A DNA stretch of 64,000 bases from Eledone cirrhosa (lineage: Eukaryota). The translations under genes were made by a program, and so were the position numbers. Positions within the stretch are counted from its first letter, which is position 1. Each line of letters opens with the position of its first letter. The notes under the pieces were generated by a model. The model did no database searches and was not told the DNA's origin. It saw only the letters and a list, made by a program, of their open reading frames with translations. The DNA lies in the NCBI GenBank assembly GCA_964016885.1, contig OZ024741.1, positions 239,940,001 through 240,004,000 on the forward strand. Reading direction: 5' to 3'. Shown piece by piece: positions 3,001 to 60,747 of this stretch.

Positions 3001-3480
3001 CCACCTGGTCTCTTGAATACAACAAACATCGACCTCCTTACGTTCAAGCATTTCTACAACCTCGTTAGCGCGACCCTTTAAGGTGCCTACATTTATGGTA
3101 CCAACTCTGAAGTTTTGGATTGCGTTTGGGGGGTGGGGGCGGTGGGCGATGGGGTTATGTTAGCCGTCCGCGGTCGAAACAAAGAGGAGTGCTCGCATTC
3201 TCGTCCACGAGGTGAATTTGTCTTTATCTTTGGCATTGTCGCTGAGCGTCCAGATTTTTCTCTCTCTTCCACTCTCCAGGATTCCGTAGTCCATCCATCC
3301 ATCATATATCGAAAAGGCAACCAGGCAAGCGATAGTATAGGCCTCTGGCTTATGATTGGTCCGCGTAATAATAATGGTGATGCGTGGGGGCTCTGGCTTA
3401 TGATTGGTCCACGTAATAACAATGGTGGTGCATGGGGGCGGGAGGGAGGGGTGTTGGGTAGGTAGCTAGCTAGAAGGTAA
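81..3480 (-). mobile_element. Near full-length RTE-clade LINE (APE endonuclease, RT, Cys-rich finger); disrupted
   Basis: ORF 1222..3051 has APE motifs (IQETRW, SAYAPQ, GDLNGHVG, QVDYIL, SQHR) and the RT N-terminus. ORF 259..1218 continues in frame after a premature TAG at 1222-1224 (GVHQGSVLSP, LLYADD). ORF 81..371 is a frameshifted C-terminus (RLRWYGHV, GRPRKSW). The 5' boundary is approximate. Confidence 0.93.
3343..3438 (-). repeat. Two ~50-bp tandem repeats in the LINE 5' region, each with a CCAAT box
   Basis: ctctggcttatgattggtcc(g/a)cgtaataa(t/c)aatggtg occurs twice in tandem. Confidence 0.85.
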
Positions 3481-8069: not shown

Positions 8070-8149
8070 TCACACATGTTTAGGGTAGGTTTCTTGATTT
8101 TCACTTCTGTTTAGTGTTGAAGTTATGCTGTTTTTATATGTATCATTTT
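8070..8149 (-). CDS. PCDH: Protocadherin A exon 4 (terminal): (E)NDTYKNSITSTLNRSENQETYPKHV*
   Basis: Acceptor tgttttcag; phase 1 matches the exon-3 donor; homologous to exon 4 of B-E with the same KHV* end. Confidence 0.8.
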
Positions 8150-8838
8150 CTGAAAACAAACAGAAACATAATATATTACAAAATGAATGTGTTTGGGACA
8201 TTTTTGCATCATTTATATATACAAATATTTACACAGTTGATTCTTTTATTTGTCTAATGGTGTTAGTTATTAGATTGCAGTCATGCTAGGGTTTAGTTGA
8301 GAGTATTGACTCCAGTAATTATTTCAGTCTGGTACTTAATTTATCAATCTATATTTTAGTTATGCTTTTTGAAATGACACAAGTTTCTACATAAGCATAG
8401 ACAAATAAAAAGAAACACACACACATATATGACAGGCTTCTGTACAGTTTCCATCTACCTAATTCCACTCACAAAGTATTGGTCAACATGACATAGTAGG
8501 AATCACTAGTCCAGGGTGATCACGCATAGCGTGATGAAGTCTGGTACCATGTGATTGCTGGTCAAACTTCATAACCATACAGTTATGCTCATATAGTATA
8601 TAATAATATTAAGCACATTACTTTTTACACAAGATGTCAAATAAACAAGTTAGAAGAGAAAGCTTCATTAAAAGTTAAATAAAATATTTCATGTTCTCAT
8701 TTCAAATTAGATAATTTTTATGAAACCCCATGTTAGCATGGAAAATAGACATTTAACAATGATGACGAAATAAGAACAATCATGCTTTATTGTATAATTA
8801 TTTCAAATCAATTAAAAAATTAGAAATGTCTTTCCTAC

Positions 8839-8983
8839 CTGAAATTACTGGTATCTCTTCATAATGCTTGGTACGTCTGTCACTCTGACTAGACAGAGTG
8901 TTAGTGGGATAGTTAGAAACAACAGATGTGCTATCTTCCACTGCATCATCATTTGATGTTACCACAATTGGTTCACTGTATTT
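8839..8983 (-). CDS. PCDH: Protocadherin A exon 3: KYSEPIVVTSNDDAVEDSTSVVSNYPTNTLSSQSDRRTKHYEEIPVIS
   Basis: Acceptor tttgttaacag, donor CAG|gtagga, 145 nt in frame; homologous to exon 3 of B-E. Confidence 0.85.
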
Positions 8984-9475: not shown

Positions 9476-11851
9476 CGATGTAGGTTTAGGAAGGGTTCTG
9501 CTTTGAATGGAAGCTTCATATTTATTCTGTAGCTGACCTTCTGAATAACATTCACTCTTTGATCTTTCAGAATATATATTTCTTTTTATCATCTCTTCTG
9601 TATTCCTTGACATAGCAACAGGATTGTTAGACTGATACAACAATTGTTTCATCTCTGTTCTACCTTGGTATGCTGTAGTGTTTGTTGTAGTAGCTGTGTT
9701 ATCTCTGTGTTTAATACATTTCATTATACACAGTGTTATAGAAACAACAATAGCCACTGATACTATTACTGCTGATGATACAATGATAATAACCCATGTC
9801 ATATGGACTCTACCTGAAGATTGTATAGGTACACTTTTCAACATTGGTGATGTCTCATTACTAACAGCCAATACCAAAGTCACACTAGTTGTTGATGACT
9901 GAACTGGACTACCACTGTCTTTTACAACAAACTTTAGTTCATAACTTCCAGCATCATTTAGATAAACTTGTCTGGAGAATGATAAAGCACCACTGTGTGA
10001 GTTCATAGTAAACAACTGTTTATTATTTCCTTGTATGATTCCATATGTGAGGAAAGCATTGTTTCCACTGTCACCATCAGATGCTCTGAAAACTGTGATG
10101 TCACTTTTACTCTGGGGATGGTAGTGGACATTTAGGATGTAAGGGTCAACACTAGGAAAGGTGAAATATGGAACATTGTCATTTTGATCTAAAATCTCAA
10201 CAACAACATTAGCTGTGTCATTTAGAGATGGACTTCCATTATCTTTGACAAAAACCTCAAATTTATACACATCTTGTTTCTCTCTGTCTAATGACATGGT
10301 GGCTGAAATAAAGCCATAACTGGTGATTAGAAATGGTAGATTTGATTTTTCTTTATGTAGCAAAGAATATGTGAGTTGTCCAGCAGATCCAAGGTCAGGG
10401 TCAGTGGCATTGACAAAACCAATAGGGAAGTCTTTATCTTTGTTTTCATAGGTCAGGAATTGGAATGTATCTTTGGTAAACTGTGGTTGTACATCATTGA
10501 TATCAGTCACTTGGATAGAGAGAGTTTTAACACTTTTAAGAGGTGGTAATCCTTTATCTTGACATGAGACAGGAATGTTATAGTGTCCTTGTGTTTCTCT
10601 GTCTACTGGTTTGTTTAGAACTATTTTATATTCTTTAGATCCCATTGACTGTAGTTTGAATGTATCATGTTTGATATCACAGCTGACCTCTCCATTTTGT
10701 CCAACATCATTGTCAGTGACCATCACATAAGCAATGAAACTACCAACTTTAATATCTTCAGAAATGGTAGCTGTGTTGTCATTGATAGCAGAAACATAAT
10801 CTATATCAATAGATGGGGGGTTGTTGTGTTGGTTGATAATATTTATCAGAACTGTTGCTATAGAACTTTGAGGGGGGCTACCACCATCTCTAGCCTCTAT
10901 AAATAATTCATAGGTTTTCTTTTTTCCTAAACTTGAATATTTATTTAGGAAAACATTTCCACTGGTTTCATTTAACTGAAAATAACTTTTTGCCAGATCT
11001 GATGTCTTTGGACTGAAATGGAAAGTAATTTTACCATTTTCTCCAGAATCAGAATCTGTTACAGATAAAACAATGATAGGTTTAGATTTGTGATGTGTAC
11101 TTTGTATGGATATATTATATAGAGGTTTAGAAAATACTGGTGGGTTGTCATTCTCATCTGTTATAGAGATATTTATATTTAAAATGCTTTGTTTTGCAGG
11201 AGATCCTCCATCTTTAGCTATGACCTGTAGTAAATATGTATCTTTGATTTCTCGATCTAATGATTCTTTCAATACTATTTTAAGAGAAGAAATACCATCA
11301 GCTCTTTTAGAAACAGACAGAGAGAATGGTTCACCATTTTTGGATTTTAATTTATATTGTATTAATGAGTTCTGAAAACCTACATCTTTGTCTATGGCAT
11401 TTGGTAGAGTTCTTTTTGTGCCCTTACTATCTGTTTCTGAGAATTTTAGAGAAATTTGTTTTTTGGGAAATTCAGGTAGATGGTCATTGATGTCTTCTAT
11501 TACTATTTTAATTTTTAATATTTTAGTAACACTTCTTCCTTTGTTTACAACAACCTTCACAGTTCTGGAACATTCTTTATTGAATGTACAGAGTTTCTCT
11601 GCATCCAGTGTCTGAGCAGTGTACAGTTTACCTGTTTTCGTGATATTAAATAACTGTGCCACCTTTCGTTTAAACTGACTGAATGTTATCAATTGTTGGT
11701 CAGATGGTTTAACATTGTCTAAAAGTTTAGAATCAGCAGCAATGTCTGCTACATATGTTCCTGGACTTCTCTCTTCTTCCACATGGTAGGTAAGGTCTAT
11801 GGTCAGAACACAGTGTACCATTGATAATACAATAGACAATAAGAGTAACAT
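9476..11851 (-). CDS. PCDH: Protocadherin A exon 2 coding part (792 codons: signal, EC1-EC6, TM, proximal cytoplasmic tail)
   Basis: Cadherin motifs (DINDH, DENDN, DINDV, DQNDN, LDRE, DGGSP), EC1 C-X5-C (CTFNKEC) and TM WVIIIVSSAVIVSVAIVVSITLC. Acceptor ttttag gives exon start 11908; donor TCG|gtaaga, phase 0. Confidence 0.95.
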
Positions 11852-15601: not shown

Positions 15602-15678
15602 TTATACATGTTTCACTGGTGTTTCTTCACTGGAATCTTTTGATGTAGATGTATCATTGTTTTTATATATATTTTGAT
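15602..15678 (-). CDS. PCDH: Protocadherin B exon 4 (terminal): (D)QNIYKNNDTSTSKDSSEETPVKHV*
   Basis: Acceptor tttcag, phase 1; block conserved in four units with an intact frame. Confidence 0.8.
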
Positions 15679-16188
15679 CTGAAATTTAGAAAATATAGTT
15701 TTACAAAATTATAGAAATACCCATTTTCTTATTTACTGAGTAAACATGAAAAAATGTAAAACATATTTTGGAGTTTGTTAAAAAAAAATGTTTTATTATA
15801 TTTTGTGTAAATTAGTTAAATTTATTTTCACTCATACATATCCTCCCTCTCAAATCAACACCTCATCAATCCGACACATTGAGCATCCTAATGCTGTAAT
15901 GAGGTGGTGTTGATGCCATGAAAAAGAAAACACCCAGTCCACCCTGTATGGTGGTAATGTTAGTGCCACAACAAAAAGCACCCATTCCATCCTGTAAGGT
16001 GGTAGTGTTGGTGCTATAAAAAAGCTCCCACTGTAAGGCATTAATAAGGACATCCAACCATAAAAAACAACAAAACAAAATAAGATTGTATTAGCAAGAC
16101 ATGGTCACCTGATCAGTCTTGCATCATAACATGACAGCCCGTCTAATTTGTGTAAGCATGGAAAATAGATGTTAAACAATGATGATAA

Positions 16189-18916: not shown

Positions 18917-20370
18917 ATATTGTTATACTTTGGGAGGGTGATGTTGCCAATAAGAAACACACGCACCAGTTGCTTTCATTCCAATTTATGATAAAAAAAA
19001 AAATTTTTTTAAATATAAAAAAAAATTTTTTTTTTAATTAAAAATTTATAAATTTCCTGTTGGTTGGTTGGTTCCACAACCGGACGGTTGTTCATATATT
19101 GTCAAAGTTCTTTCGTCACACATTCTGTGACCTCTTCAGTGACGGGATTCTTTTCTTTGTTTTGTGCCTCTCCTTTGTTCTGTCCTACGCCATCTTGTTT
19201 TTGTGTTGTGTGTGTTTTTATTTGTTTATTTATTTGTTTATTTACATGTTACTGGTTAGTTGTTTGTTCTATGTGCGTGTGTTTTCATTTTGTCCTTAAT
19301 TGTAAGTTGTGATGTTGCTATTCCATTCATGTTTTCTATTTAATTTTGGTTGGAGTTCATTTATGTTTATTGCTTCTGTGATTTGTCTAAACATTGCGAA
19401 AATTAGAGAACATAGAAATAAAAATAAAATCTACACACAGAAAAGACACAATGTTTAGACAAATCACAGAGGCAATAAACATAAATGAACTCCAACCAAA
19501 ATTAAATAGAAAACATGAATGGAATAGCAACATCACAACTTACAATTAAGGACAAAATGAAAACTCACACACATAGAACAAACAACTAACCAGTAACATG
19601 TAAATAAACAAATAAATAAACAAATAAAAGCACACACAGACACTCGGATGTAACACATGCGCAAACTAAGCACACAACACACACAAAAACAAGATGGCGT
19701 AGGACAGAACAAAGGAGAGGCACAAAACAAAGAAAAGAATCCCCAGTCACAGAAGAGGTCACAGAATGTGTGACGAAAGAACTTTGACAATATATGAACA
19801 ACCGTCCGGTTGTGGAACCAACCAAACAACCAACCGGAAATTTATAAATTTTTAATAAAAAAAATAAAAATTTTTTTTTAAAAATTTATAATAAATTGGA
19901 GTGAAAGCAATTGGTGCGCGTGTTTCTTATTGGCAACATGACAACATGACCCTCCCAAAGTATAACAATATCGGTTTCAACACATGTTTTCAGATAAAGA
20001 ATCTTGCTAAACAAATTTAGAAACGATATATATATGATATATAAATTAATGTATAGAAATTGTTGTGAGCGTGAAGTACTATGGGGGAAGGTGGAGTACA
20101 GCCTATTATGTAATGGGGTTGTAGTCACTACAGATAATAATAGTTTTGGCCATATAATATAGAAACTATGTACTATGACAGCTGCAGCTTCACAGCATCT
20201 GTCTTCTAGGTGGCTGTGTACGCCGATTTTGGGAGAATGGGTGAACCGCGTTTGATTTGCCAAATTAGAGGGTGAGTATGGTTTGTTTGGCAGGAGCCCT
20301 GGGTAGAGGTTGGCGTTTGGTTTAGGGTGTTTGCTGAGGGTTAGTAGACTGATTGGAACAATAACGGTCT
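18917..20370. mobile_element. ~1.05-kb inverted repeat (arms ~18917-19396 and ~19449-19971) plus adjacent decayed sequence; probably a Penelope-like remnant
   Basis: The arms are reverse complements (mirror ORFs 19060..19299 + and 19533..19829 -). Adjacent minus-strand AAAVIVHSFYIIWPKLLLSVV resembles a decayed GIY-YIG tail; a related piece lies at ~58180-58330. The family call is tentative. Confidence 0.55.
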
Positions 20371-22406: not shown

Positions 22407-22427
22407 AACCATTAAATATTTTAAATC

Positions 22428-24056
22428 AATACCAGGAAGAGGCACCATGATGCCCTCTTCCTTGTGAAGGAGTTACAGGAAAAGTACCTAGCTAAAAGTA
22501 AGTCACTCTACCTGGCATTCGTCGATCTCGAGAAAACCTTTGACAGAGTTCCACGTGCTGTAATCTGGTGGGCTCTTAGAAAACTAGGAGTAGATGAATG
22601 GCTTTTCAAAGCTGTTCAAGCCATGTATAGGGGAGCAGTCAGCAAAGTTAGGATTAGCAATGAGTATAGCAAGGAATTTAGCGTACAGGTTGGGGTCCAC
22701 CAGGGCTCTGTTCTTAGCCCTCTCCTGTTCATTGTAGTCCTGCAGGCAATAACGAAGGAGTTTAAGACCGGATGCCCATGGGAACTCCTGTATGCTGATG
22801 ACCTCGCACTTATAGCTGAATCTATGGTAGAACTAGAGAAGAAATTCCAAACTTGGAAGCAGGGACTAGAAAGAAAGGGTCTCAAAGTCAACATGACAAA
22901 GACTAAGGTCCTTGTAAGTAGACGAGAAAACAGAACCCATATCCCCTCAGGGAAATGACCTTGCTCAGTATGTAGGAAAGGTGTAGGTAGGAACTCCATT
23001 CTCTGCCCAAATGCAAACAATGGGTACACAAGAGATGTAGCGGGATCTCAGGAAGCTTAATTAAGAATGTAGGCTTCACATGCAGCAGCTGCACTGGGAC
23101 AGCAAGCAGCATACAGTCACAGGAAACAAGTACCACCAATCTCTGGGAGGGCTCTGTAGAGACAGTAGACAGCTTCTACTACCTAGGTGACCGAATTAGC
23201 AGTGAAGGTGGGTGTTCAGAAAGTACAATAACTAGGGTAAGAACGGGATGGAAGAAGTTCAGGGAACTACTGCCACTGCTAGCTGCAAAAGGCTTCTCCC
23301 TCAAAATGAAAGGCAGACTGTATGATGCGTGTATCCGAACAGCAATGTTACATGGTAGTGAGACCTGGGCACTGAAGGTGGAAGACTTACGTAGATAGGA
23401 GAGAAACGAAGCCTGCATGCTCCGATAGATGTGTAATAGTAATATAAGCGAACGACAAAGCATAAATGAATTGAGAGAGAGAGACTGAGCATAAGAGGAA
23501 TCAAATGCGGTGTGCAGGAGAGGCAGCTGCGTTGGTATGGGCATGTGATGCGTATGAAGGATGACAGCTGCATAAAAAGGTGCAGAGCACTAGAAGTCGA
23601 TGGAAACCACGGAGTGGGGAGACCCAAGATGACCTGGGATGAGGTGATAAAAGCCGACCTTACCCAATTACACCTCTCAAAGGCGATGACACACGACCGT
23701 GACCTCTGGCGTCATGCAGTAATACAGAGTACCCGACCTCCCATGGGTACAAGCTGAAGCATATAGACAATATGCCCCCACACCCTCCCACTGCAAGGTG
23801 GCCGTGGAGGTGCCACGGCAAAAAAGCACCCAGCCCACACTGTAAAGTGGGCATGTAGGCGCCACGAAAAAGCACCCAGCACTCACTGTAAATGAGGTTG
23901 GTGTTAGGAAGGGCATCCAGCTGTAGAAATCAAGCCAAATCAGTTCCTGTATGAGCAAAGCATGGTCAGCCGACCAGACACTGCCCACAACAGGACAACC
24001 CGTCTAACCCATGCTAGCGTGGAAGAACAGATGTAAAACGGTGATGATGATGATGA
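22428..24056 (+). mobile_element. 5'-truncated RTE LINE (RT to 3' tail) with stops and frameshifts
   Basis: ORF 22464..22958 (GVHQGSVLSP, LLYADD), ORF 23512..23757 and a (GAT)n tail; highly similar to 48110-49737. Confidence 0.92.
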
Positions 24057-27643: not shown

Positions 27644-30019
27644 TGGGGTAGGTTTTGGTAAAGTTCTTGACTGAACTGAAGCTTCATATTTATTCTGTAG
27701 CTGACCTTCTGAATAACATTCACTCTTTGATCTCTCAGAATATATATTTCTTTTTATCATCTCTTCTGTATTCCTTGACATAGCAACAGGATTGTTAGAC
27801 TGATACAACAATTGTTTCATCTCTGTTCTACCTTGGTATGCTGTAGTCTTTGTTGTAGTAGCTGTGTTATCTCTGTGTTTAATACATTTCATTATACACA
27901 GTGTTATAGAAACAACAATAGCCACTGATACTATTACTGCTGATGATACAATGATAATAACCCATGTCATATGGACTCTACCTGAAGATTGTAAAGGTAC
28001 ACTTTTCAACATTGGTGATGTCTCATTACTAACAGCCAATACCAAAGTCACACTAGTTGTTGATGACTGAACTGGACTACCACTGTCTTTTACAACAAAC
28101 TTTAGTTCATAACTTCCAGCATCATTTAGATAAACTTGTCTGGAGAATGATAAAGCACCACTGTGTGAGTTCATAGTAAACAACTGTTTATTATTTCCTT
28201 GTATGATTCCATATGTGAGGAAAGCATTGTTTCCACTGTCACCATCAGATGCTCTCAAAACTGTGATGTCACTCTTACTCTGGGGATGGTAGTGGACATT
28301 TAGGGTGTAAGGGTTAACACTAGGAAAGGTGAAGTATGGAACATTGTCATTTTGATCTAAAATCTCAACAACAACATTAGCTGTGTCATTTAGAGATGGA
28401 CTTCCATTATCTTTGACAAAAACCTCAAATTTATACACATCTTGTTTCTCTCTGTCTAATGACATGGTGGCTGAAATAAAGCCATAACTGGTGATCAGAA
28501 ATGGTAGATTTGATTTTTCTTTATGTATCAGAGAATATGTGAGTTGTCCAGCAGATCCAAGGTCAGGGTCAGTGGCATTGACAAAACCAATAGGGAAGTC
28601 TTTATCTTTGTTTTCATAGGTCAGGAATTGGAATGTATCTTTGGTAAACTGTGGTTGTACATCATTGATATCAGTCACTTGGATAGAGAGAGTTTTAACA
28701 CTTTTAAGAGGTGGTAATCCTTTATCTTGACAGGAGACAGGAATGTTATAGTGTCCTTGTGTTTCTCTGTCTACTGGTTTATTTAGAACTATTTTATATT
28801 CTTTAGATCCCATTGACTGTAGTTTGAATGTATCATGTTTGATATCACAGCTGACCTCTCCATTTTGTCCAACATCATTGTCAGTGACCATCACATAAGC
28901 AATGAAACTACCAACTTTGATCTTCTCAGAAATAGTTCCTAAGTTATAATTGGTTGCAGAAACATAATCTATATCAATAGATGGAGGGTTGTTGTGTTGG
29001 TTGAGAACATTTACCAGAACTGTTGCTATGGAACTGAATGGAGGGTTGCCTCCATCTCTAGCCTCAATAAACAGTTCATAGGTTTTCTTTTTTCCCAAAC
29101 TTGAATATTTACTTAAGAAAATATTTCCACTGGTTTCATTTAATTGGAAATAACGTTTTGCTAGATCCGATGTCTTTGGACTGAAATGGAAAGTAATTTT
29201 ACCATTTTCACCTAAGTCAGCATCTGTTACAGATAAAACAATGATAGGTTTAGATTTGTGATGTGTACTTTGTACTGATATATTATATAAAGGTTTAGAA
29301 AATACAGGTGGGTTATCATTTAAATCTGTTACAGAGATATTTATATTTAAAATACCTTGCTTTGATGGTGAACCTCCATCTTTAGCTATGACCTGTAGTA
29401 AATATGTGTCTTTGATTTCTCTGTCTAATGATTCTTTCAAAACTATGTTAAGAGAAGAAATACCATCTGCTCTTTTAGAGACTGAAAGAGAAAATGGTTC
29501 ACCATTCTTGGATTTTAATTTATATTGTATTAATGAATTTTGAAAACCAACATCTTTGTCCATAGCATTTGGTAGTGATCGTTTTGAACTGATACGTGCA
29601 TCTTCTCCAAACAAGATATTTACAGTTTTCCTAGGAAACTCAGGTTGATGGTCATTGATGTCTTCTATTACTATTTTGACTTTCAATATTTTTGTAAAAG
29701 TTTCCACTTTCTTCATTATAATTTTAACAGTTCTAGAACATTCCTTGTTGAATGTACAGAGCTTCTCTGCATCCAGTGTCTGAGCAGTGTACAGTTTACC
29801 TGTTTTGGTGATATTAAATAACTGTGCCACCTTTCGTTTAAATTGACTGAATATTATCAATTGTTGGTCAGATGGTTTAACATTGTCTAAAAGTTTAGAA
29901 TCAGCAGCAATGTCTGCTACATATGTTCCTGGACTTCTCTCTTCTTCCACATGGTAGGTAAGGTCTATGGTCAGAACACAGTGGACCATTGATAATACAA
30001 TAGACAATGACAGTAACAT
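27644..30019 (-). CDS. PCDH: Protocadherin B exon 2 coding part (792 codons)
   Basis: Same domain layout as A; acceptor gives exon start 30067; donor CCA|gtaagt. Confidence 0.95.
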
Positions 30020-34476: not shown

Positions 34477-34553
34477 TTATACATGTTTCACTGGTGTTTC
34501 TTCACTGGAATCTTTTGATGTAGATGTATCATTGTTTTTATATATATTTTGAT
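34477..34553 (-). CDS. PCDH: Protocadherin C exon 4 (terminal, ...EETPVKHV*)
   Basis: Acceptor ttccag; identical in coding to B exon 4. Confidence 0.8.
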
Positions 34554-34704
34554 CTGGAATTTAGATACAAAATACAGTTTTATGTAGTTAAGAAAATGAC
34601 CATCAAGTAAACAATATGACTAAAGATCTATTTTGGAATTTTATTAGAAGAGAGTGTCTATGAATAATAAGTGAGTAAATTAATTCTTATATATATATAT
34701 ATAT

Positions 34705-35508: not shown

Positions 35509-35675
35509 ATGTATATATGTGTGTGTATGTGTGCATACTTACATTTATGTATCAGCTGTACTAGGGCGAGAAAAAACATCCTATATATATATATGTATAT
35601 ATATATAAATGAAAAATCAAAAGATTAGAAAATTAACGAATCTATACAAATCATATTATATAAATAATAATATTA

Positions 35676-36032
35676 AAGATTTGAAGATGCACCTAAAGTT
35701 TTCTATATACACGCAAATTTACAGTACGGATTGAAAAGAAATTAGTTCATACAAACATTTTTTTTTTTTTAAATATAGGAAGATTTTCAGAAATAGTTAT
35801 AATTATCTAATTAGTTTTTGTACTAACCGGTTTCACAATCAGTAGCTTTTAAAAGTTTCATGAAATTTTGAAAAGCTACTGATAGTAAAATACTAATTAG
35901 TTAATAATAACTATTTCTGAAATCCCACCTATATTATTTTTTAAAAAGCTATAATTTTTGTTCATGAACTAATTTCTTTTCATTATGTAAATTTGCACAT
36001 ATATAGAAAACCTTAAGTGCATCTTCAAATTT
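35676..36032. repeat. Imperfect fold-back palindrome (~360 bp) centred on tttcatgaaa
   Basis: tttgaagatgcac..ttttctatat pairs with atatagaaaa..gtgcatcttcaaa; cagaaatagttat pairs with ataactatttctg; atcagtagctttt pairs with aaaagctactgat. Confidence 0.8.
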
Positions 36033-36489
36033 TTTTATTTAAAAAAAATTCTTAAAATAATTATTTTCTGTATGTGTATATCTATATATCTATCTATCTA
36101 TCTCTCTCTCTATATATATATATATATTTGTGTGTTCCGAAGAGATTGTTTTGGTAAAAAACAGGAGCAAGCAGGAGAAAGCTCTCAACAGTTTGCAGTT
36201 GCGATGGAGATTCAGCATAATAATAACATTAATAAAGATGCTTGACTCACGAGCAGAAGGACGAGTGTTTTGTTTCCTGCTGGCAGCATATTACAAAATC
36301 AAATTTCATCTGAGGATACCATTCTCATAACAGCAACAAATGCATGGATTACATCTTGATTGCATGGGAGAATCGTTGAAATAATTATAATGAATAAATG
36401 ATTTATGTAACATCAGCATCTTTATTAATGCTATTCATCATCATCATCATCATCATCATCATACGTCCGCTTTCCCCTGCTTGCAAGGC

Positions 36490-37492
36490 TAGGATCTCAG
36501 GAAGCTTAACTAAGAATGTAGGCTTCACATGTAGCAGCTGTGCTGGGAGAGCAAGCAGCAAACAGCCAGAGGAAACAAGTACCACCAATCTCTGGGAGGA
36601 CTCTGTAGAAACAGTAGACAGCTTCTGCTACCTAGGTGACCGAATTAGCAGCGGAGGTGGGTGTTCAGAAAGTACAATAACTAGAGTAAGAACGGGATTG
36701 AAGAAGTTTAGGGAACTACTACCACTGCTAGCTGCAAAAGGCTTCTCCCTCAAAATGAAAGGCAGATTGTATGATGCGTGTATACGAACAGCAATGTTAC
36801 ATGGTAGTGAGACCTGGGCGCTGTCTGTGGAAGACTTGCGTAGATTAGAAATAAATGAAGCATGCTCTGATGGATGTGTAATAGTAATATACGTGAACGG
36901 CAAAGCATAAACGAATTGAGAGAGAGACTGAGCATAAGAGGAATCAAATGTTGTGTGCAGGAGAGGCGGTTGTGCTGGTATGGACATGTGATGCATATGA
37001 AGAATGACAGCTGCATAAAAAGGTGCAGAGCACTAGAAGTCGATAGAAACCGCGGACTGGGGAGACCCAAGAAGACCTGGGATGAGGTGACAAAAGCCGA
37101 CCTTACCCAATTACACCTGTCAAAAGCGATGACACACGACTGTGACCTCTGGCGTCACGCAGTAATACAGAAGACCCGGCCCCCCACGGGTACAAGCCGA
37201 AGCTGAAGCATGCCCCCACACCCTCCCATTGCAAAGTGATTGTGGAGGTGCCACGACAAAAAAGCACCCAGCCCACACTGTAAAGTGACCGTGTAGGCGC
37301 CACAGAAAAAAAGCACCCAGCACTCACTGTAAATGAGGTTGGTGTTAGGAAGGGCATCCAACTGTAGAAATCAAGCCAGAATCAGTTTCCATATGAGCAA
37401 GGCATGGTCAACCGACTGGACACTGCCCACAACAGGACAACCCGTCTAACCCATGCTAGCATGAAAGAACGGACGTAAAACGGTGATGATGA
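36490..37492 (+). mobile_element. 5'-truncated RTE LINE
   Basis: ORFs 36398..36910 and 36874..37206 match the RTE C-terminal region; (GAT)n tail. Confidence 0.9.
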
Positions 37493-38125
37493 TATATATA
37501 TATATATATATATATATGGATGTCATCATCATCATCATTTTACGTCCGCTTTTCCCTGCTTGCAAGGGTGTGTGTATATAAATAGAGAGAGAAACATAAC
37601 ACACACACACACGAGTAAGTATTTATTAATCTTCTAATATTTATAATAGATTTGAATTAACAGATACGATTAAATAAAGAGCACTTCACACATAAGGTGG
37701 ATTTTATATGTGTGTGTATATATATATATATATACACACACATGTACATACAGTGATTTGAAAGTTGGAAAATGAAATTATGAAGGAAGTTACAGGGTGA
37801 GACGAGTGATGGAAATGAATGCAGAGGAAGGCAGAGAAAAGTGAAAATTAAGAAAGAAATAGCTAAAGATGATGGAGGAAGAAATCAGAGGCAGATGTTT
37901 GCTGAGGGCAGATGTTTGCTGAGGGCAGATGTAGACAATAGAGAAAACTGAAGAAGTCTGTCATTGTTGTTTTGTTCTGAAGATATTAAAGAAAACTTAA
38001 ATTATTAAAATGATAATTTCTTCATGAAAATAAACCTGTTTCATGAATTTCAATGAATACAATAGTATTCTATATTTGATATAGCTATTAATACATGTTT
38101 ACATCTCACATTATATCAAAGTAAA

Positions 38126-39066: not shown

Positions 39067-39210
39067 AGTAACTATAACATAGATTCATCTTAGCATCCAT
39101 TTTTGAATGAAATTATACTTGGTAGAAATTCACAAAATATAAACAATTAACACATGTCTACATTTGAGATAAGGTCAAAATAATATAATAAAGTCAATAT
39201 AGTTATTAAC

Positions 39211-39376
39211 CTGATATTCCTGGTAATTCTTCATAATGTTTCATATCACCTTCATTCAATACACGTCTACTACTTCTCTTAGATGACATTGTATCTGATG
39301 TATAGTTACAAACTATAGGAGGATTATCTTCCACAGCATCATCACTGGATGTCACCACAACAGGTTGACAATATTT
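39211..39376 (-). CDS. PCDH: Protocadherin C exon 3
   Basis: 166 nt with the same splice sites as B. Confidence 0.87.
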
Positions 39377-39867: not shown

Positions 39868-42243
39868 TGGGGTAGGTTTTGGTAAAGTTCTTGACTGAAC
39901 TGAAGCTTCATATTTATTCTGTAGCTGACCTTCTGAATAACATTCACTCTTTGATCTCTCAGAATATATATTTCTTTTTATCATCTCTTCTGTATTCCTT
40001 GACATAGCAACAGGATTATTAGACTGATACAACAATTGTTTCATCTCTGTTCTACCTTGGTATGCTGTAGTGTTTGTTGTAGTAGCTGTGTTATCTCTGT
40101 GTTTAATACATTTCATTATACACAGTGTTATAGAAACAACAATAGCCACTGATACTATTACTGCTGATGATACAATGATAATAACCCATGTCATATGGAC
40201 TCTACCTGAAGATTGTATAGGTACACTTTTCAACATTGGTGATGTCTCATTACTAACAGCCAATACCAAAGTCACACTAGTTGTTGATGACTGAACTGGA
40301 CTACCACTGTCTTTTACAACAAACTTTAGTTCATAACTTCCAGCATCATTTAGATAAACTTGTCTGGAGAATGATAAAGCACCACTGTGTGAGTTCATAG
40401 TAAACAACTGTTTATTATTTCCTTGTATGATTTCATATGTGAGGAAAGCATTGTTTCCACTGTCACCATCAGATGCTCTCAAAACTGTGATGTCACTCTT
40501 ACTCTGGGGATGGTAGTGGACATTTAGGGTGTAAGGGTCAACACTAGGAAAGGTGAAATATGGAACATTGTCATTTTGATCTAAAATCTCAACAACAACA
40601 TTAGCTGTGTCATTCAGAGATGGACTTCCATTATCTTTGACAAAAACTTCAAATTTATACACATCTTGTTTCTCTCTGTCTAATGACATGGTGGCTGAAA
40701 TAAAGCCATAACTGGTGATCAGAAATGGTAGATTTGATTTTTCTTTATGTATCAGAGAATATGTGAGTTCTCCAGCAGATCCAAGGTCAGGGTCAGTGGC
40801 ATTGACAAAACCAATAGGGAAGTCTTTATCTTTGTTTTCATAGGTCAGGAATTGGAATGTATCTTTGGTAAACTGTGGTTGTACATCATTAATATCAGTC
40901 ACTTGGATAGAGAGAGTTTTAACACTTTTAAGAGGTGGTAATCCTTTATCTTGACATGAGACAGGAATGTTATAGTGTCCTTGTGTTTCTCTGTCTACTG
41001 GTTTATTTAGAACTATTTTATATTCTTTAGATCCCATTGACTGTAGTTTGAATGTATCATGTTTGATATCACAGCTGACCTCTCCATTTTGTCCAACATC
41101 ATTGTCAGTGACCATCACATAAGCAATGAAACTACCAACTTTGATCTTCTCAGAAATGGTTCCTGAGTTATAATTGATAGCAGAAACATAATCTATATCA
41201 ATAGATGGAGGGTTGTTGTGTTGGTTGATAATGCTTACTAGAACAGTTGCTATAGAAATGTGAGGAGGACTGCCTCCATCTCTAGCTTCTATAAATAATT
41301 CATAAGTTTTCTTTTTTCCCAAACTTGAATATTTATTTAAGAAAATGTTTCCACTGGTTTCATTTAATTGGAAATAACTTTTTGCTAGATCTGATGTCTT
41401 TGGACTGAAATGAAAAGTAATTTTACCATTTTCACCAGAATCAGAATCTTTTACAGATAAAACAATGATAGGTTTAGATTTGTGATGTGTACTTTGTACT
41501 GATATATTATATAGAGGTTTAGAAAATACTGGTGGGTTGTCATTCTCATCTGTTATAGAGATATTTATATTTAAAATACCTTGTTTTGATGGTGAACCTC
41601 CATCTTTAGCTATGACTTGTAGTAAATATGTATCTTTGATTTCTCTGTCTAATGATTCTTTTAAAACTATTTTAAGAGAAGAAATACCATCTGCTCTTTT
41701 AGAGACTGACAGTGAGAATGGTTCACCATTCTTGGATTTTAATTTATAATGTATTAATGAGTTCTGAAAACCTACATCTTTGTCTATGGCATTTGGTAAT
41801 GTTCGTTTTGTGCCCTTTCCATCTGTTTCTGAGAACATTAGAGAAATTTGTCTTTTTGGAAATTCAGGTTGATGATCATTGATGTCTTCTATGATTATTT
41901 TAACTTTCAATATTTTTGTAAAAGTTTCCACTTTCTTCATTAAAATTTTAACAGTTTTAGAACATTCTTTGTTGAATGTACAAAGCTTCTCTGCATCCAG
42001 TGTCTGAGCAGTGTACAGTTTACCTGTTTTGGTGATATTAAATAACTGTGCCACCTTTCGTTTAAATTGACTGAATATTATCAATTGTTGGTCAGATGGT
42101 TTAACATTGTCTAAAAGTTTAGAATCAGCAGCAATGTCTGCTACATATGTTCCTGGACTTCTCTCTTCTTCCACATGGTAGGTAAGGTCTATGGTCAGAA
42201 CACAGTGAACGATTGATAATACAATAGACAATGACAGTAACAT
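39868..42243 (-). CDS. PCDH: Protocadherin C exon 2 coding part (792 codons)
   Basis: Same layout as A; exon start 42326; donor CCA|gtaagt. Confidence 0.95.
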
Positions 42244-45375: not shown

Positions 45376-45795
45376 ATGATATTAAATAAACGGAAACTAT
45401 ATTTATTAAACCATATTTATTTTATTATATATATTTCAAGGGTTGACTTTGCCTTTCATCCTTACGGGGTCGATAAAATAAAGTACCAGTAATGCACTGA
45501 GTAATTGCTGGCCTTGTGCCTAAAGTAGGAACAATTATATATATTTCAAGGGTACCAAGACAACATTGGTATGCTTTCATCAGATAAAATACAAAGTTTG
45601 TTTTATAAATAGAGACATACCCAGTGAATTTCCAACCGATAAGGTATGATTTTCATGGGTATGTCTCTATTTATAAAACAAACTTTGTATTTTATCTGAT
45701 GAAAGCGTACCAATGTTGTCTTGGCACCCTTGAAATATATATAATAAAATAAATATGGTTTTATAAATATAGTTTCCATTTATTTAATATCATTG
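45374..45795. mobile_element. Fold-back MITE with a SINE 3' fragment inserted in the left arm
   Basis: Near-perfect arms around a ~30-nt loop at ~45625-45655; SINE piece ~45443-45533 flanked by duplicated tatatatatttcaaggg. Confidence 0.82.
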
Positions 45796-46109: not shown

Positions 46110-46539
46110 CTGGAATTTAGATACAAATTACAGTTTTATATTAAAATGACTCAGATAAATATATTTCAGTATTACAGAAAAGCAAGTAAAAGTTCTTATT
46201 AGTCAAAGATTTTCTAAAATAGTAACCATCATCATCATCATCATTCAACGTCCATCTTCCATGCTAGCATGGGTTTAATTATTTTGGAATTTCAATACAA
46301 CATGCAATTTTAAAAGAAGTTCTTCAAATCAGGTTTGTTATTAATTCTTCAATTTACAAAACAATATGAAAATATAAAACAAATAACATAATGGTATCAT
46401 ATATGTATTCTCAAATTTCTTAGGAGAATAGAATTTCTAGGAAGCTCTTGTACAATTGACCAAATTCATTCACATTAATTACACATTAAAGAAATGGTTG
46501 TTAATTCTAAAATATAATATATATTTGCTAGAGTCCTTG

Positions 46540-49500
46540 TAGGAAAAGTCAGTGCTACAAATTTTTCTGGGTGGGAAATGACAATGGGATGCGGGGTGTA
46601 GGTATTCTCCTAGCTGACAAGTGGGTAGATAAAGTAATCTCAGTGAACAGAGTAAATGCAAGAATCATTAAACTCAGACTAGTCCTAAATAAAACAATTA
46701 CCACAATAATATCAGCTTACGCACCCCAATCGGGGTTGCCAGACGAACTTAAGGATAGGTTTTACGAGTCCCTAATGCACACTACTGCTCTAACAAACGA
46801 CAATGACTTCCTAATCATTGCAGGAGATTTCAACGGACACGTAGGTAAACACTGTGACAGCTTCAATAGAGTCCATGGAGGTCATGGGGTTGGCACAAGA
46901 AATGAAGAAGGATTCAGACTTCTAGAATTCTGCGACGCCAATGACATGTCGATATGTAACACAAACTTCAAAAAACCCGACAACCATCTGATCATCTATA
47001 GATCAGGGGAGCATTCTAGTCAGAAAGATTTTATCCTTATCAGAGGGCGTGATAGATGGACGGTTGTAAACACAAAAGCCTTCCCTGGTGAGGAAAGTAC
47101 CTCCCAACATAGCTTAGTTGTCAGCGACCTCACGGTCAGAACTAGATGAACCTGGAAACAGAGGCCAACCAGGATAAGAAAGATCTGGAAGCTGAAAGAC
47201 CCCTCAGCCAGTAACAGATTTAAAGATAGTTTACTCGACGCCTATGACAGTAAAGAAGAACAGATAGAGACATTCAATGTAGAAGAGCAGTGGGAGTTCC
47301 TAAAGAATAATTTACTAGAGGCGACGGATGAGATCTGTGGTTGGAGTAAGACCACAAGCAGGAGGAGAGTGACTTGGTGGTGGAACAATAAGGTAGATGA
47401 GGCAGTTAAGGCCAAGAGACAGGCATGGAAAGAATGGAAGAACAGGGGAAGCAGGGTACGTTACATAGAGACCAAGAGGGAAGCTAGGCGACAAGTATAC
47501 TTAGCTAGGAGGGAAGCAGAGGATAGAAAATCCAAGCATGTTTTGCAACGTGAGGACCAGAAACAGGAGGTGTTCAATATTGCGAGGCAGTGTGTCAGAG
47601 AGAATTGTGATGTCATTGGAGAGAAGTGTATCCAGAATGATAAAGGTGAGCTTGCCCTCACAAGTGCTGAGAAGAAAGATGGATGGAAGAGCCATTATGA
47701 TAGATTACTAAATGAGGAGAATGCATGGGAAGAAGAGACCCTACTCAAAGTAGATCCTATAGAGGGGCCAGCAGTACAAGTCAGCAGCAACGTAGTAAGT
47801 AAGGCAATCAAAGATATGAAGATGGGGAAGGCAACCAGTCCATCGGGTATAGCTGCCGAGATGCTGAAGGCATCTGGGTCTGTAGGTCACACTATAACCA
47901 CACGTATTGTTAACCAGGTAATACTAGGTGTCATACCAAAAGATTGGTGCAGTAGCATCATTGTCAACTGCTACAAAGGTAAAGGTGATGCACTAGATAG
48001 AGGAAACTATAGAGGTATAAAGCTGATGGACCAGGTCATGAAAGTAACAGAAAGAGTTATAGCACAGTTGATTAGGGACCAGGTGAAACTAGATGAGATG
48101 CAATTTGGGTTTGTACCAGGAAGAGGCACCACTGATGCCCTCTTACTTGTGAGGCAGTTACAGGAAAAGTACCTAGCTAAGAGTAAGCTACTCTACCTGG
48201 CATTCGTCGATCTCGAGAAAGCCTTTGACAGAGTTCCACGTGCTGTAATCTGGTGGGCTCTTAGAAAACTAGGAGTAGATGAATGGCTTGTGAAAGCTGT
48301 ACAAGCCATGTATAGGGGAGCAGTCAGCAAAGTTAGGATTAGCAATGAGTATAGCGAGGAATTTAGCGTACAGGTTGGTGTCCACCAGGGCTCTGTTCTT
48401 AGCCCTCTCCTGTTCATCATAGTCCTGCAGGCAATAACGGAGGAGTTTAAGACCGGATGCCCATGGGAACTCCTGTATGCAGATGATCTTGCACTTATAG
48501 CTGAATCTATGGTAGAACTAGAGAAAAAATTCCAAACTTGGAAGCAGGGACTAGAAAGAAAGGGTCTCAAAGTCAACATGACAAAGACTAAGGTCCTTGT
48601 AAGTAGACGAGAAAACAGAACCCAGATCCCCTCAGAGAAATGGCCTTGCTCAGTATGTAGGAAAGGTGTAGGTAGAAACTCCATTCTCTGCCCCAAATGC
48701 AAACAATGGGTACACAAGAGATGTAGCGGGATCTCAGGAAGCTTAATTAAGAATGTAGGCTTCACATGTAGCAGCTGTGCTGGGACAGCAAGCAGCATAC
48801 AGCCACAGGAAACAAGTACCACCAATCTCTGGGAGGGCTCTGTAGAAACAGTAGACAGCTTCTGCTACCTAGGTGACCGAATTAGCAGCGGAGGTGGGTG
48901 TTCAGAAAGTACAATAACTAGGGTAAGAACGGGATGGAAGAAATTCAGGGAACTACTGTCACTGCTAGCTGCAAAAGGCTTTTCCCTCAAAATGAAAGGC
49001 AGACTGTATGATGCGTGTATCCGAACAGCAATGTTACATGGTAGTGAGACCTGGGCGCTGAAGGTGGAAGACTTATGTAGATTAGAAAGAAACGAAGTCT
49101 GCATGCTCCGATGGATGTGTAATAGTAATATATGCGAACGGCAAAGCATAAATGAATTGAGAGAGAGACTGAGCATAAGAGAAATCAAATGCTGTGTGCA
49201 GGAGAGGCGGTTGCGCTGGTATGGACATGTGATGCATATGAAGGATGACAGCTGCATAAAAAGGTGCAGAGCACTAGAAGTCAATGGAAACCGTGGAGTG
49301 GGGAGACCCAAGAAGACCTGGGATGAGGTGATAAAAGCCGACCTTACCCAATTACACCTCTCAAAGGCGATGACACACGACCGTGACCTCTGGCGTCACG
49401 CAGTAATACAGAGTACCCGACCTCCCATGGGTACAAGCTGAAGCATATAGACAATATGCCCCCACACCCTCCCACTGCAAAGTGGTCGTGGAGGTGCCAT

Positions 49501-50112: not shown

Positions 50113-52488
50113 TGGAGTAGGTTTTGGTAAAGTTCTTGACTGAACTGAAGCTTCATATTTATTCTGTAGCTGACCTTCTGAATAACATTCACTCTTTGAT
50201 CTCTCAGAATATATATTTCTTTTTATCATCTCTTCTGTATTCCTTGACATAGCAACAGGATTATTAGACTGATACAACAATTGTTTCATCTCTGTTCTAC
50301 CTTGGTATGCTGTAGTCTTTGTTGTAGTAGCTGTGTTATCTCTGTGTTTAATACATTTCATTATACACAGTGTTATAGAAACAACAATAGCCACTGATAC
50401 TATTACTGCTGATGATACAATGATAATAACCCATGTCATATGGACTCTACCTGAAGATTGTAAAGGTACACTTTTCAACATTGGTGATGTCTCATTACTA
50501 ACAGCCAATACCAAAGTCACACTAGTTGTTGATGACTGAACTGGACTACCACTGTCTTTTACAACAAACTTTAGTTCATAACTTCCAGCATCATTTAGAT
50601 AAACTTGTCTGGAGAATGATAAAGCACCACTGTGTGAGTTCATAGTAAACAACTGTTTATTATTTCCTTGTGTGATTCCATATGTGAGGAAAGCATTGTT
50701 TCCACTGTCACCATCAGATGCTCTCAAAACTGTGATGTCACTCTTACTCTGGGGATGGTAGTGGACATTTAGGGTGTAAGGGTTAACACTAGGAAAGGTG
50801 AAGTACGGAACATTGTCATTTTGATCTAAAATCTCAACAACAACATTGGCTGTGTCATTCAGAGATGGACTTCCATTATCTTTGACAAAAACCTCAAATT
50901 TATACACATCTTGTTTCTCTCTGTCTAATGACATGGTGGCTGAAATAAAGCCATAACTGGTGATCAGAAATGGTAGATTTGATTTTTCTTTATGTATCAG
51001 AGAATATGTGAGTTGTCCAGCAGATCTAAGGTCAGGGTCAGTGGCATTGACAAAACCAATAGGGAAGTCTTTATCTTTGTTTTCATAGGTCAGGAATTGG
51101 AATGTATCTTTGGTAAACTGTGGTTGTACATCATTGATATCAGTCACTTGGATAGAGAGAGTTTTAACACTTTTAAGAGGTGGTAATCCTTTATCTTGAC
51201 ATGAGACAGGAATGTTATAGTGTCCTTGTGTTTCTCTGTCTACTGGTTTATTTAGAACTATTTTATATTCTTTAGATCCCATTGAATGTAGTTTGAATGT
51301 ATCATGTTTGATATCACAGCTGACCTCTCCATTCTGTCCAACATCATTGTCAGTGACCATCACATAAGCAATGAAACTACCAACTTTGATCTTCTCAGAA
51401 ATGGTTCCTGAGTTATAATTGGTTGCAGAAACATAATCTATATCAATAGATGGAGGGTTGTTGTGTTGGTTAACAACATTTACTAGAACTGTTGCTATGG
51501 AATTAAGAGGAGGACTGCCCCCATCTCTGGCCTCGATAAATAGCTCATAACTTTTTCGTTTTCCTAAACTTGAATATTTATTTAAGAAAATATTTCCACT
51601 GGTTTCATTTAACTGAAAATAACTTTTGGCTAGATCTGATGTTTTGGGGCTGAAATGAAAAGTAATTTTACCATTTTCACCAGAATCAGAATCTGTTACA
51701 GATAAAACAATGATAGGTTTAGATTTGTGATGTGTACTTTGTATGGATATATTATATAGAGGTTTAGAAAACTCGGGTGGGTTATCATTCACATCTATTA
51801 TAGAAATATTTATATTTAAAATACCTTGTTTTGATGGTGAACCTCCATCCTTAGCTATGACCTGTAGTAAATATTTATCTTTGATTTCTCTGTCTAATGA
51901 ATCTTTCAATACTATTCTAAGAGAAGAAATACCATCAGCTCTTTTAGAGACTGACAGAGAGAATGGTTCTCCATTCTTGGATTTTAATTTATATTGTATT
52001 AAGGAGTTTTGAAACCCTACATCTTTGTCTATGGCATTTGGTATTGATACTTTAGAACCTTTGCTATCATTTTCATCAAAGTGTATGTTGACACTCTTCA
52101 TAGGAAAGTCTGGTTGATGGTCATTGATGTCTTCTATTACTATTTTGACTTTTAATATTTTTGTGAAAGTTTCTACTTTCTTTATAATAATTTTCATAGT
52201 TCTAGAACATTCCTTGTTGAAAAAACACAGTTTCTCTGCATCCAGTGTCTGAGCAGTGTACAGTTTACCTGTTTTGGTGATATTAAATAACTGTGCCACC
52301 TTTCGCTTAAATTGACTAAATGTTATCAATTGTTGGTCAGATGGTTTAACATTGTCTAAAAGTTTAGAATCAGCAGCAATGTCTGCTACATATGTTCCTG
52401 GACTTCTCTCTTCTTCCACATGGTAGGTAAGGTCTATGGTCAGAACACAGTGGACCATTGATAATACAATAGACAATGACAGTAACAT
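50113..52488 (-). CDS. PCDH: Protocadherin D exon 2 coding part (792 codons)
   Basis: Same layout as A; exon start 52548; donor CCA|gtaagt. Confidence 0.95.
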
Positions 52489-58371: not shown

Positions 58372-60747
58372 TGGGGTAGGTTTTGGTAAAGTTCTTGACT
58401 GAACTGAAGCTTCATATTTATTCTGTAGCTGACCTTCTGAATAACATTCACTCTTTGATCTCTCAGAATATATATTTCTTTTTATCATCTCTTCTGTATT
58501 CCTTGACATAGCAACAGGATTGTTAGACTGATACAACAATTGTTTCATCTCTGTTCTACCTTGGTATGCTGTAGTCTTTGTTGTAGTAGCTGTGTTATCT
58601 CTGTGTTTAATACATTTCATTATACACAGTGTTATAGAAACAACAATAGCCACTGATACTATTACTGCTGATGATACAATGATAATAACCCATGTCATAT
58701 GGACTCTACCTGAAGATTGTATAGGTACACTTTTCAACATTGGTGATGTCTCATTACTAACAGCCAATACCAAAGTCACACTAGTTGTTGATGACTGAAC
58801 TGGACTACCACTGTCTTTTACAACAAACTTTAGTTCATAACTTCCAGCATCATTTAGATAAACTTGTCTGGAGAAGGATAAAGCACCACTGTGTGAGTTC
58901 ATAGTAAACAACTGTTTATTATTTCCTTGTATGATTCCATATATGAGGAAAGCATTGTTTCCACTGTCACCATCAGATGCTCTCAAAACTGTGATGTCAC
59001 TCTTACTCTGGGGATGGTAGTGGACATTTAGGGTGTAAGGGTTAACACTAGGAAAGGTGAAATATGGAACATTGTCATTTTGATCTAAAATCTCAACAAC
59101 AACATTAGCTGTGTCATTCAGAGATGGACTTCCATTATCTTTGACAAAAACCTCAAATTTATACACATCTTGTTTCTCTCTGTCTAATGACATGGTGGCT
59201 GAAATAAAGCCATAACTGGTGATCAGAAATGGTAGATTTGATTTTTCTTTATGTATCAGAGAATATGTGAGTTGTCCAGCAGATCCAAGGTCAGGGTCAG
59301 TGGCATTGACAAAACCAATAGGGAAGTCTTTATCTTTGTTTTCATAGGTCAGGAATTGGAATGTATCTTTGGTAAATTGTGGTTGTACATCATTGATATC
59401 AGTCACTTGGATAGAGAGAGTTTTAACACTTTTAAGAGGTGGTAATCCTTTATCTTGACATGAAACAGGAATGTTATAGTGTCCTTGTGTTTCTCTGTCT
59501 ACTGGTTTGTTTAGAACTATTTTATATTCTTTAGATCCCATTGACTGTAGTTTGAATGTATCATGTTTGATATCACAGCTGACCTCTCCATTTTGTCCAA
59601 CATCATTGTCAGTGACCATCACATAAGCAATGAAACTACCAACTTTAATATCTTCAGAAATGGTAGCTGTGTGGTCATTGATAGCAGAAACATAATCTAT
59701 ATCAATAGATGGAGGGTTGTTGTGTTGGTTGACAATATTTATCAGAACTGTTGCTATAGAACTGTGAGGGGGGCTACCACCATCTCTGGCCTCTATAAAT
59801 AATTCATAGGTTTTCTTTTTTCCTAAACTTGAATATTTATTTAAGAAAATATTTCCAATGGTTTCATTTAATTGGAAATAACTTTTTGCTAGATCTGATG
59901 TCTTTGGACTGAAATGGAAAGTAATTTTACCATTTTCACCAGAATCAGAATCTGTTACAGATAAAACAATGATAGGTTTAGATTTGTGATGTGTACTTTG
60001 TATGGATATATTATATAGAGGTTTAGAAAATACTGGTGGGTTGTCATTCACATCTATTATAGAGATATTTATATTTAAAATACCTTCTTTTGATGGTGAA
60101 CCTCCATCTTTAGCTATGACCTGTAGTAAATATGTATCTTTGATTTCTCTGTCTAATGATTCTTTTAAAACTATTTTAAGAGAAGAAATACCATCAGCTC
60201 TTTTAGAGACTGACAGAGAGAATGGTTCTCCATTCTTGGATTTTAATTTATATTGTATTAATGAGTTTTGAAAACCTATATCTTTGTCTATGGCATTTGG
60301 TAGTGATTGTTTTGTGCCCTTTCCATCTGTTTCTGAGAACCTTAAAAAAATTTGTTTCTTAGGAAATTCAGGTTTATGATCATTGATATCTTCTATTACT
60401 ATTTTGATTTTTAATATTTTAGTAACACTTCTTCCTTTATTAATAACAACCTTAACTGTTCTAGAACATTCTTTGTTAAATGTACAGAGCCTCTCTGCAT
60501 CCAGTGTCTGAGCAGTGTACAGTTTACCTGTTTTGGTGACATTAAATAACTGTGCCACCTTTCGTTTAAATTGACTGAATGTTATCAATTGTTGGTCAGA
60601 TGGTTTAACATTGTCTAAAAGTTTAGAATCAGCAGCAATGTCTGCTACATATGTTCCTGGACTTCTCTCTTCTTCCACATGGTAGGTAAGATCGATGGTC
60701 AGAACACAGTGTACCATTGATAATACAATGGACAATGACAGTAACAT
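58372..60747 (-). CDS. PCDH: Protocadherin E exon 2 coding part (792 codons); exon 1 lies beyond the window
   Basis: Likely start MLLSLSIV at 60747 by alignment with A-D; acceptor tttcag gives exon start 60810; donor CCA|gtaagt. Confidence 0.94.

Follow-up and report, generated by a model that had tools for sequence, protein, structure and literature searches.

Short-patch mosaicism and long-range residue coupling between cadherin repeats in an octopod protocadherin array

The protocadherin sub-arrays of coleoid cephalopods have been described as tandem whole-gene duplicates that run in one direction, for which gene conversion was suggested and which lack a shared constant exon (available parts of PMC9068888, PMC6339937 and PMC10084454). 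In their available text, the first two of these papers are silent on function, on the binding interface and on any residue code, and the literature searched, in which subscription journals were thinly covered, yielded no study of a cephalopod protocadherin's binding interface or residue code. For vertebrate protocadherins, antiparallel dimers, residue-coupling analyses and charge swaps have already been described, and the antiparallel dimer has been predicted to be ancestral (PMC5001838, in the part available). Whether the large cephalopod protocadherin expansion holds a homophilic code, as in vertebrates, is the question addressed by the residue-level predictions presented here. The locus analysed resembles the coleoid sub-arrays of Albertin 2022 and Styfhals 2019 in being a tandem same-strand array, in which the genes have their own tail exons and are homogenised. 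What appears to be new is patch-level mosaicism combined with long-range residue coupling in octopod protocadherins, which we did not find in the literature searched.

The window (the whole stretch of DNA that was analysed, 64,000 nucleotides) contained five protocadherin genes on the minus strand, termed A to E. A search of the same genome placed them at the 3′ end of a 30-gene array, which comprised 30 intact large ORFs over approximately 275 kb, every one on the minus strand. Across EC1-EC4, 22 of the array genes were at least 90% identical to gene C (the main subfamily) while the other eight showed approximately 81% identity (the second subfamily). In each window gene, one large exon encoded six cadherin repeats and the membrane anchor. 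These exons were located on the minus strand at 9476..11851 (A), 27644..30019 (B), 39868..42243 (C), 50113..52488 (D) and 58372..60747 (E), those of A, B, D and E being defined by their ORFs and that of C by its ORF, Pfam matches and downstream exons. The large exon of C comprised the signal peptide, EC1-EC6, the TM segment and the start of the tail, and ended in a GT donor; residues are numbered from its Met. It matched Pfam Cadherin and Cadherin_2 and, with six EC repeats, a TM segment and a tail, belongs to the protocadherins. Among the matches listed, the nearest named proteins were Octopus and Argonauta protocadherins, with 79-89% identity. All five window genes had their own pair of further coding exons downstream of the large exon; those of C were placed by tblastn at 39209..39376 (approximate ends) and, for the last one, near 34480-34560, both on the minus strand. 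No shared constant exon was present behind A-E (5/5 window genes), and the organisation is therefore not that of the vertebrate alpha and gamma clusters. The tail-exon pair of A (8073-8156 and 8840-8983) diverged from those of B-E, and the last coding exon of B (15605-15685) was located approximately 11.6 kb past its preceding exon. Introns and spacers also contained stop-broken, LINE-like endonuclease/reverse-transcriptase remnants, recognised by eye from their motifs (259-3159, 22425-24053, 36398-37500 and 46532-49441), and comparison of the window with itself revealed inverted repeats at 18917-19971 (approximately 1.1 kb), 35675-36034 (360 bp) and 45534-45745 (210 bp).

Several variable patches were present in the large exon, whose positions are given here for gene C on the minus strand. 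The EC1 F-G hairpin patch (residues 100-109, 41917..41946) occurred in two old haplotype classes, KKVETF and NKGxSV, and carried at the hairpin tip codon 106 (41926..41928), the outer-pair residue, which was E in C and R, T, V or I in other genes. EC2 contained a hypervariable A'-B patch (residues 130-149, 41797..41856), A/E-like in C, and the inner-pair codon 191 on strand E (41671..41673), which was K in C. Its partner, codon 328 (41260..41262; H in C), was located in the EC3 F-G loop, within a variable patch that extended to the G strand (residues 325-339, 41227..41271). In EC4, the patch formed by the A-strand hairpin and the A'-B loop (residues 355-366, 41146..41181) included codon 366 (41146-41148), K in C and D in A and E, which comes directly after Glu365 of the calcium-binding xE motif. 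The motif groupings reported in an earlier note on this DNA were all recovered: residues 100-109 were of the NKGRSVT type in A and E and of the KKVETFT type in B, C and D; residues 357-366 read ND(N/H)TATISED in A and E and NYN(L/S)GTISEK in B, C and D; the EC2 patch separated A, C and E from B and D; and residues 336-338 of EC3 were INI, VSI and INI in A, C and E versus VNV in B and D. Over the whole array, the EC2 patch (130-149) presented 29 different sequences among 30 genes and every gene (30/30) had a distinct combination of patches. Since synonymous divergence was high in the patches (pS 0.29-0.61 versus 0.04-0.11 in homogenised parts), they are, judging from the nucleotide comparison, old variants that escape homogenisation. 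In a simple analysis, pN/pS remained below 1 in every patch, with no sign of positive selection.

Linkage within the array was short-ranged. Among the 22 main-subfamily genes, mean r2 dropped from 0.22 (<15 nt) to a background of 0.05 by 60 nt and rose again only at 700-900 nt, and a PHI-like test gave p=0.0005, consistent with homogenisation by gene conversion. EC5-6 were 98-99% identical within species and 92% identical between this genome and Argonauta, and the patch variants were common to both sides of the Argonauta split. Gene C had been singled out as a mosaic with a B/D-type outer pair, an A/E-type EC2 patch and DNA matches to A, and two stretches of it, 41501-41577 and 41750-41798, indeed showed no difference from A. 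The former stretch found a perfect match in A alone of 29 paralogs (one mismatch in the runner-up), while the latter was matched equally well by three other paralogs and thus does not point to A as the donor. Along the gene, the nearest relative of C shifted segment by segment among the 29 paralogs, and the same applied to A, B, D and E. Because the nearest relative changes per segment and linkage is gone within approximately 60 nt, C is one of many short-patch mosaics: it is truly a mosaic, made of short patches like its paralogs and not by a clean module swap. That the junction between its EC1 loop and EC2 patch is an assembly chimera is unlikely, as a 135-nt short-read contig, present in two of four runs from a single sample that may be the assembly's own source, covered 41807-41941 without any difference. 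A true nested EC2-EC3 block was found in eight interspersed genes, none of them in the window (L023-L030, 240.03-240.20 Mb). The block was defined by 85 fixed nucleotide differences, all within codons 121-314, with EC1 and EC4 of the common type, and shared approximately 66% protein identity with C. EC2-EC3 blocks of this type were also present in Octopus and Argonauta proteins, and in other species the block was found on both K-D and D/E-K outer pairs.

We then considered the outer pair, 106/366, that is, the tip of the EC1 F-G hairpin and the A'-B loop of EC4. Its combinations over the 30 array genes were R-D (6), T-D (5), E-K (15), E-N (1), V-K (2) and I-K (1), and neither R-K nor E-D was found in any of the 30. 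The five window genes (n=5) allow nothing to be called beyond chance; over the array, the charge-swapped EC1/EC4 pair proposed in the earlier note was upheld, ISEK being present in 0/6 GRSV genes and D366 in 0/16 E106 genes. The link also withstood the refutation that had been set for it, because no array paralog mixes GRSV with ISEK. The G-type EC1 loop was associated with D366 (Fisher p=7e-6 in the 30 genes) and, inside this loop, D366 accompanied R or T and K366 accompanied V, I or M. When 69,393 distant site pairs were scanned across the main subfamily (22 genes), EC1 103/106 with EC4 358-366 reached family-wise p values of 0.002-0.013, and the only distant links that passed were those between the EC1 F-G hairpin and EC4 and between 191 and 328. 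A hypergeometric statistic was used here, with a block-permutation null that takes paralogs as independent, since a family-wise test on the maximum r2 was powerless (best p about 0.10), r2=1 being attained by rare alleles even under the null. The whole EC4 patch (YNSG versus DxTA) was a different matter: it tracked the EC1 type in 21/22 main-subfamily genes and failed to do so in 7/8 second-subfamily genes. The neighbouring parts of EC1, EC4-EC6, the tail and the intron correlated with the link at r≤0.16 versus 0.70, in a comparison where a misplaced cut in the 3′ intron of L027, a second-subfamily gene, left the 22-gene result unaffected. That the flanks do not follow the 106/366 link argues against plain whole-gene ancestry.

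The same pair stood out beyond this array. The coupling set was confined to octopods and built from the best 120 of 957 homologs plus, from the closest cluster, 15 of its 24 members; a search of protein representatives was dominated by very long multi-repeat cadherins. Six of the 185 aligned rows were dropped as gappy or identical in EC1-4, resulting in 179 distinct sequences. In them, 106/366 ranked third of 94,395 pairs by MI-APC and first between domains, moved to rank 6 under stricter weighting, and kept its rank once the genes of this genome were removed (149 proteins of other octopods). D366 was present in 71/71 sequences with K/R106 and in 2/60 with D/E106, and neutral states (T, V, A, G, N and S) were common at both sites. 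When the tree was inferred with the patch columns removed, it offered 10 supported, independent contrasts of K/R with D/E, of which 9.5 on average changed in the predicted direction and none in the opposite one (median p=0.002). Single-domain trees yielded fewer pairs and p values from 0.004 to 0.13, the EC1 tree giving p=0.06-0.13. The charge rule was repeated in divergent subfamilies of various backgrounds (K-D, R-D, E-K, D-K and E-R), and the tree carried approximately 45 and 36 changes of state. The caveat that shared ancestry could by itself produce the co-variation was thereby examined: whole-gene ancestry does not explain the EC1/EC4 link, which replicates in phylogenetically independent pairs. 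A second EC1-EC4 coupling was seen in the wider family, where 111/179 sequences had R62-D351 versus Q/E-N; it was fixed in the 30-gene array (codons 62 and 351 of C, window positions 42058-42060 and 41191-41193). Residue 351 aligns with Ser344 of protocadherin-10, a named variable EC1:EC4 contact.

The inner code suggested by the five genes, in which the EC2 A-B patch would go with the EC3 G strand, did not survive. The EC2 patch (130-149) and the EC3 F-G patch were uncorrelated (Mantel r=0.04, p=0.28), and the single EC3 G-strand residue mixed over EC2 types in the 30-gene array. Co-variation was found at 191/328 (family-wise p 0.025; same 22 genes and 69,393 distant site pairs), with F328 in 12/12 N191 genes and 1/18 others of the array. 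N191 was accompanied by F or I at 328, and K/R191 by H, L or Q; the window genes carried K191/Q328 (A), N191/F328 (B), R191/L328 (D) and K191/H328 (E), their outer pairs being R106/D366 in A and E and E106/K366 in B and D. The 191/328 split was repeated inside the second subfamily, four genes and four, and in close homologs (n=41) N191 went with F/I in 15/17 and K191 with L in 24/24; the homolog counts come from a pooled-species scan which was swamped by species-fixed differences and is kept for per-pair counts only. The outer and inner classes assorted freely. No co-varying partner was found for the EC2 patch 130-149, the most variable one, and co-variation was absent at 136/325, the pair homologous to a vertebrate contact pair.

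Other sub-arrays of the genome presented both exceptions and variations of these couplings. In 41 further genes, 106/366 was K-D in 36, E-D in four and K-G in one, the last being a gene of a different subfamily from an array 12.5 Mb away. The four E106/D366 genes that break the rule are neighbouring paralogs (L038-L041, 239.29-239.32 Mb), and their clade has K at 107 and accepts G, K or E at 106; a rescue by K107 would be a post hoc explanation. Acid was also paired with acid in 2/149 proteins of other species. In the neighbouring sub-array L042-L071 (239.37-239.66 Mb), K106/D366 was invariant in the 30/30 genes fetched, and an EC2-EC3 coupling appeared at 162/282, which was perfect (S-K in 22, R-T in 8; family-wise p=0.0005), together with weaker links from 183/185 to 280-289. 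Separate sub-arrays thus seem to vary separate parts of one surface.

The AlphaFold2 monomer of the protein (mean pLDDT 86.7) matched vertebrate EC1-4 structures in Foldseek, and the best PDB match by sequence was 6vg1, Xenopus protocadherin 8.1. EC1 strands F and G spanned residues 94-104 and 107-119, so that 106 forms the tip of their hairpin, and its partner 366 lies in the loop past EC4 strand A'. Of the inner pair, 191 is located on strand E of EC2 and 328 in the F-G loop of EC3. In vertebrate dimers, the F-G hairpins of EC1 and EC3 face the A-B and D-E hairpins of EC2 and EC4 (PMC5115871 and PMC7082078, in the parts available); in EC4, the loop that follows the extended first strand contacts the EC1 F-G loop (available part of PMC5001838). 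The elements linked by 106/366, and those linked by 191/328, are thus opposed to one another in the vertebrate dimers. The pair 106/366 itself is absent from the contacts named in the available text of PMC5115871, PMC7082078, PMC5001838 and PMC5106212, and the clustered-protocadherin structures that were aligned have an F-G hairpin three residues shorter than the octopod EC1 one. Alignment places the hypervariable residues 136 and 325 at gammaB 111 and 294, a contact pair described in PMC5106212 (available part). A prediction of the EC1-4 homodimer of C, in which the alignment was not used, scored 0.01, gave no contacts and bears neither way. The EC3-EC4 calcium motifs were degenerate in A-E (approximately 41210-41510 in C), EC3 having neither xE nor DRE, and NQHNN replacing DxNDN; calcium binding may thus be reduced at this linker, which may bend. 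From the coupling and the topology we infer that 106-366 and 191-328 are in contact, in trans and homophilically.

The mosaicism, the decay of linkage within approximately 60 nt, the two couplings with their replication elsewhere and the free assortment of classes are probably explained by old short patches that are moved by conversion, with matched pairs touching across an antiparallel EC1-EC4 self-dimer and selection retaining them. Gene conversion would transfer short patches among copies, and a conversion product would persist if it still formed the antiparallel dimer with its own copy. This requirement for self-binding would tie 106 to 366 and 191 to 328, recombinants unable to self-bind being removed by selection; it would then be selection, rather than a process at the DNA level, that holds the long-range links. 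The earlier version of this idea, that an intact nested EC2-EC3 module is swapped between matched outer pairs with C as an example, is improbable. C does join B and D at the outer patches and A and E across EC2-EC3 among the five window genes, and the separate EC2-EC3 block of eight genes outside the window, found elsewhere on both outer classes, would suit such swaps. Nevertheless, the EC2 and EC3 patches are mutually unlinked in the subfamily of C, its nearest relative varies by segment and the inner pair proposed for the module does not co-vary, which refutes C as one clean, special swap. Slightly less probable still is that the links are an artefact of shared ancestry and conversion, in that the EC1 and EC4 patches of two old lineages persisted, the sequence between and around them was overwritten and the coupling has no function. 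Linkage to 366 is absent at sites 20-60 codons away but present at one 260 codons away, the charge rule is repeated on differing subfamily backgrounds, and within one loop type R/T is found with D but V/I/M with K; all of this speaks against such an artefact, in favour of which are the age of the patches (high pS), the synonymous codon 365 that moves with 366 and a weak association of the 5′ flank with the F-G type (r 0.13-0.16). Finally, it is very unlikely that the coupled residues make an intramolecular contact or come together in a cis complex on the same membrane. A bend at the EC3-EC4 junction, which is without the usual calcium motifs, could favour this, but the EC1-2 and EC2-3 linkers are canonical, so that, from fold and topology, a single chain should be unable to bring its EC1 tip to the distal end of EC4; moreover, the pairs are nested (EC1-EC4 and EC2-EC3), as an antiparallel dimer requires.

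Retaining the trans self-dimer as the preferred reading, it has still to be asked whether the classes exclude each other. When an R/D molecule meets an E/K molecule, R would face K and E would face D; these combinations are absent from the array, and poor mutual binding is thus expected. We are somewhat inclined to think that the R106/D366 and E106/K366 classes discriminate against each other. The alternative, which we regard as rather unlikely, is compatibility without discrimination: the pairs of a trans-homodimer must match, yet A-E would cross-bind broadly and the patches would tune affinity. Indeed, within-gene co-variation can show selection on self-binding only, neutral residues are frequent at both 106 and 366, and L042-L071 is fixed for K106/D366 in the 30/30 genes fetched. 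In the available text of PMC5001838, vertebrate EC1/EC4 is described as an affinity module, with EC1/EC4 chimeras that still aggregated, and delta-protocadherins show weaker heterophilic binding inside subfamilies (PMC7082078, in the part available). However, opposite-charge classes have stood side by side since before the Argonauta split while their flanking domains were homogenised, each of the 30/30 array genes has its own patch combination, and like-charge EC1:EC4 clashes have been proposed to keep vertebrate subfamilies apart. Multiplying the outer class by the inner class and by the nearly gene-unique EC2 patch would result in a combinatorial code. We tentatively suggest, with a little less than even confidence, that octopods independently built such a self-recognition code in single exons, in which ancient patches are shuffled while lock is kept with key over 400-800 nt, and in which the 106/366 swap makes mutually non-binding classes that are combined with an independent EC2:EC3 switch. 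The array can be regarded as a recombination screen run by nature: conversion scrambles the genes, wipes out ancestry and leaves candidate interface contacts as the sole long-range linkage.

When compared to the vertebrate clustered protocadherins (Goodman 2016 PMC5106212 and Nicoludis 2016 PMC5001838, in the parts available), the octopod array shares six EC repeats on one large exon, the EC1-4 fold and the variable faces. In both, charge complementarity is proposed as a specificity rule, and EC5-6 are the most homogenised repeats (available part of PMC4978886). In contrast, the octopod array is an independent expansion with its own tail exons per gene, and its EC2-EC3 are shuffled in short tracts, whereas vertebrate EC2-3 are reported as the least converted (PMC4978886, in the part available). 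The EC1:EC4 charge class differs among octopod neighbours that are more than 90% identical, while in vertebrates it differs mainly between subfamilies, and the 106/366 site is not that of gammaB E41:K338. The delta-2 protocadherins (Harrison 2020 PMC7082078 and Cooper 2016 PMC5115871, in the parts available) form antiparallel EC1-4 dimers whose peripheral salt bridges vary, and the EC4 A-strand hairpin of the octopod protein equals those of 6vg1 and protocadherin-18 in length. Delta-2 genes are few and dispersed, whereas the octopod genes constitute a converting array, and sequence identity between the two is about 30%. In sequence and monomer model, the nested EC1-EC4 and EC2-EC3 couplings lie on the faces expected for the antiparallel EC1-4 arrangement.
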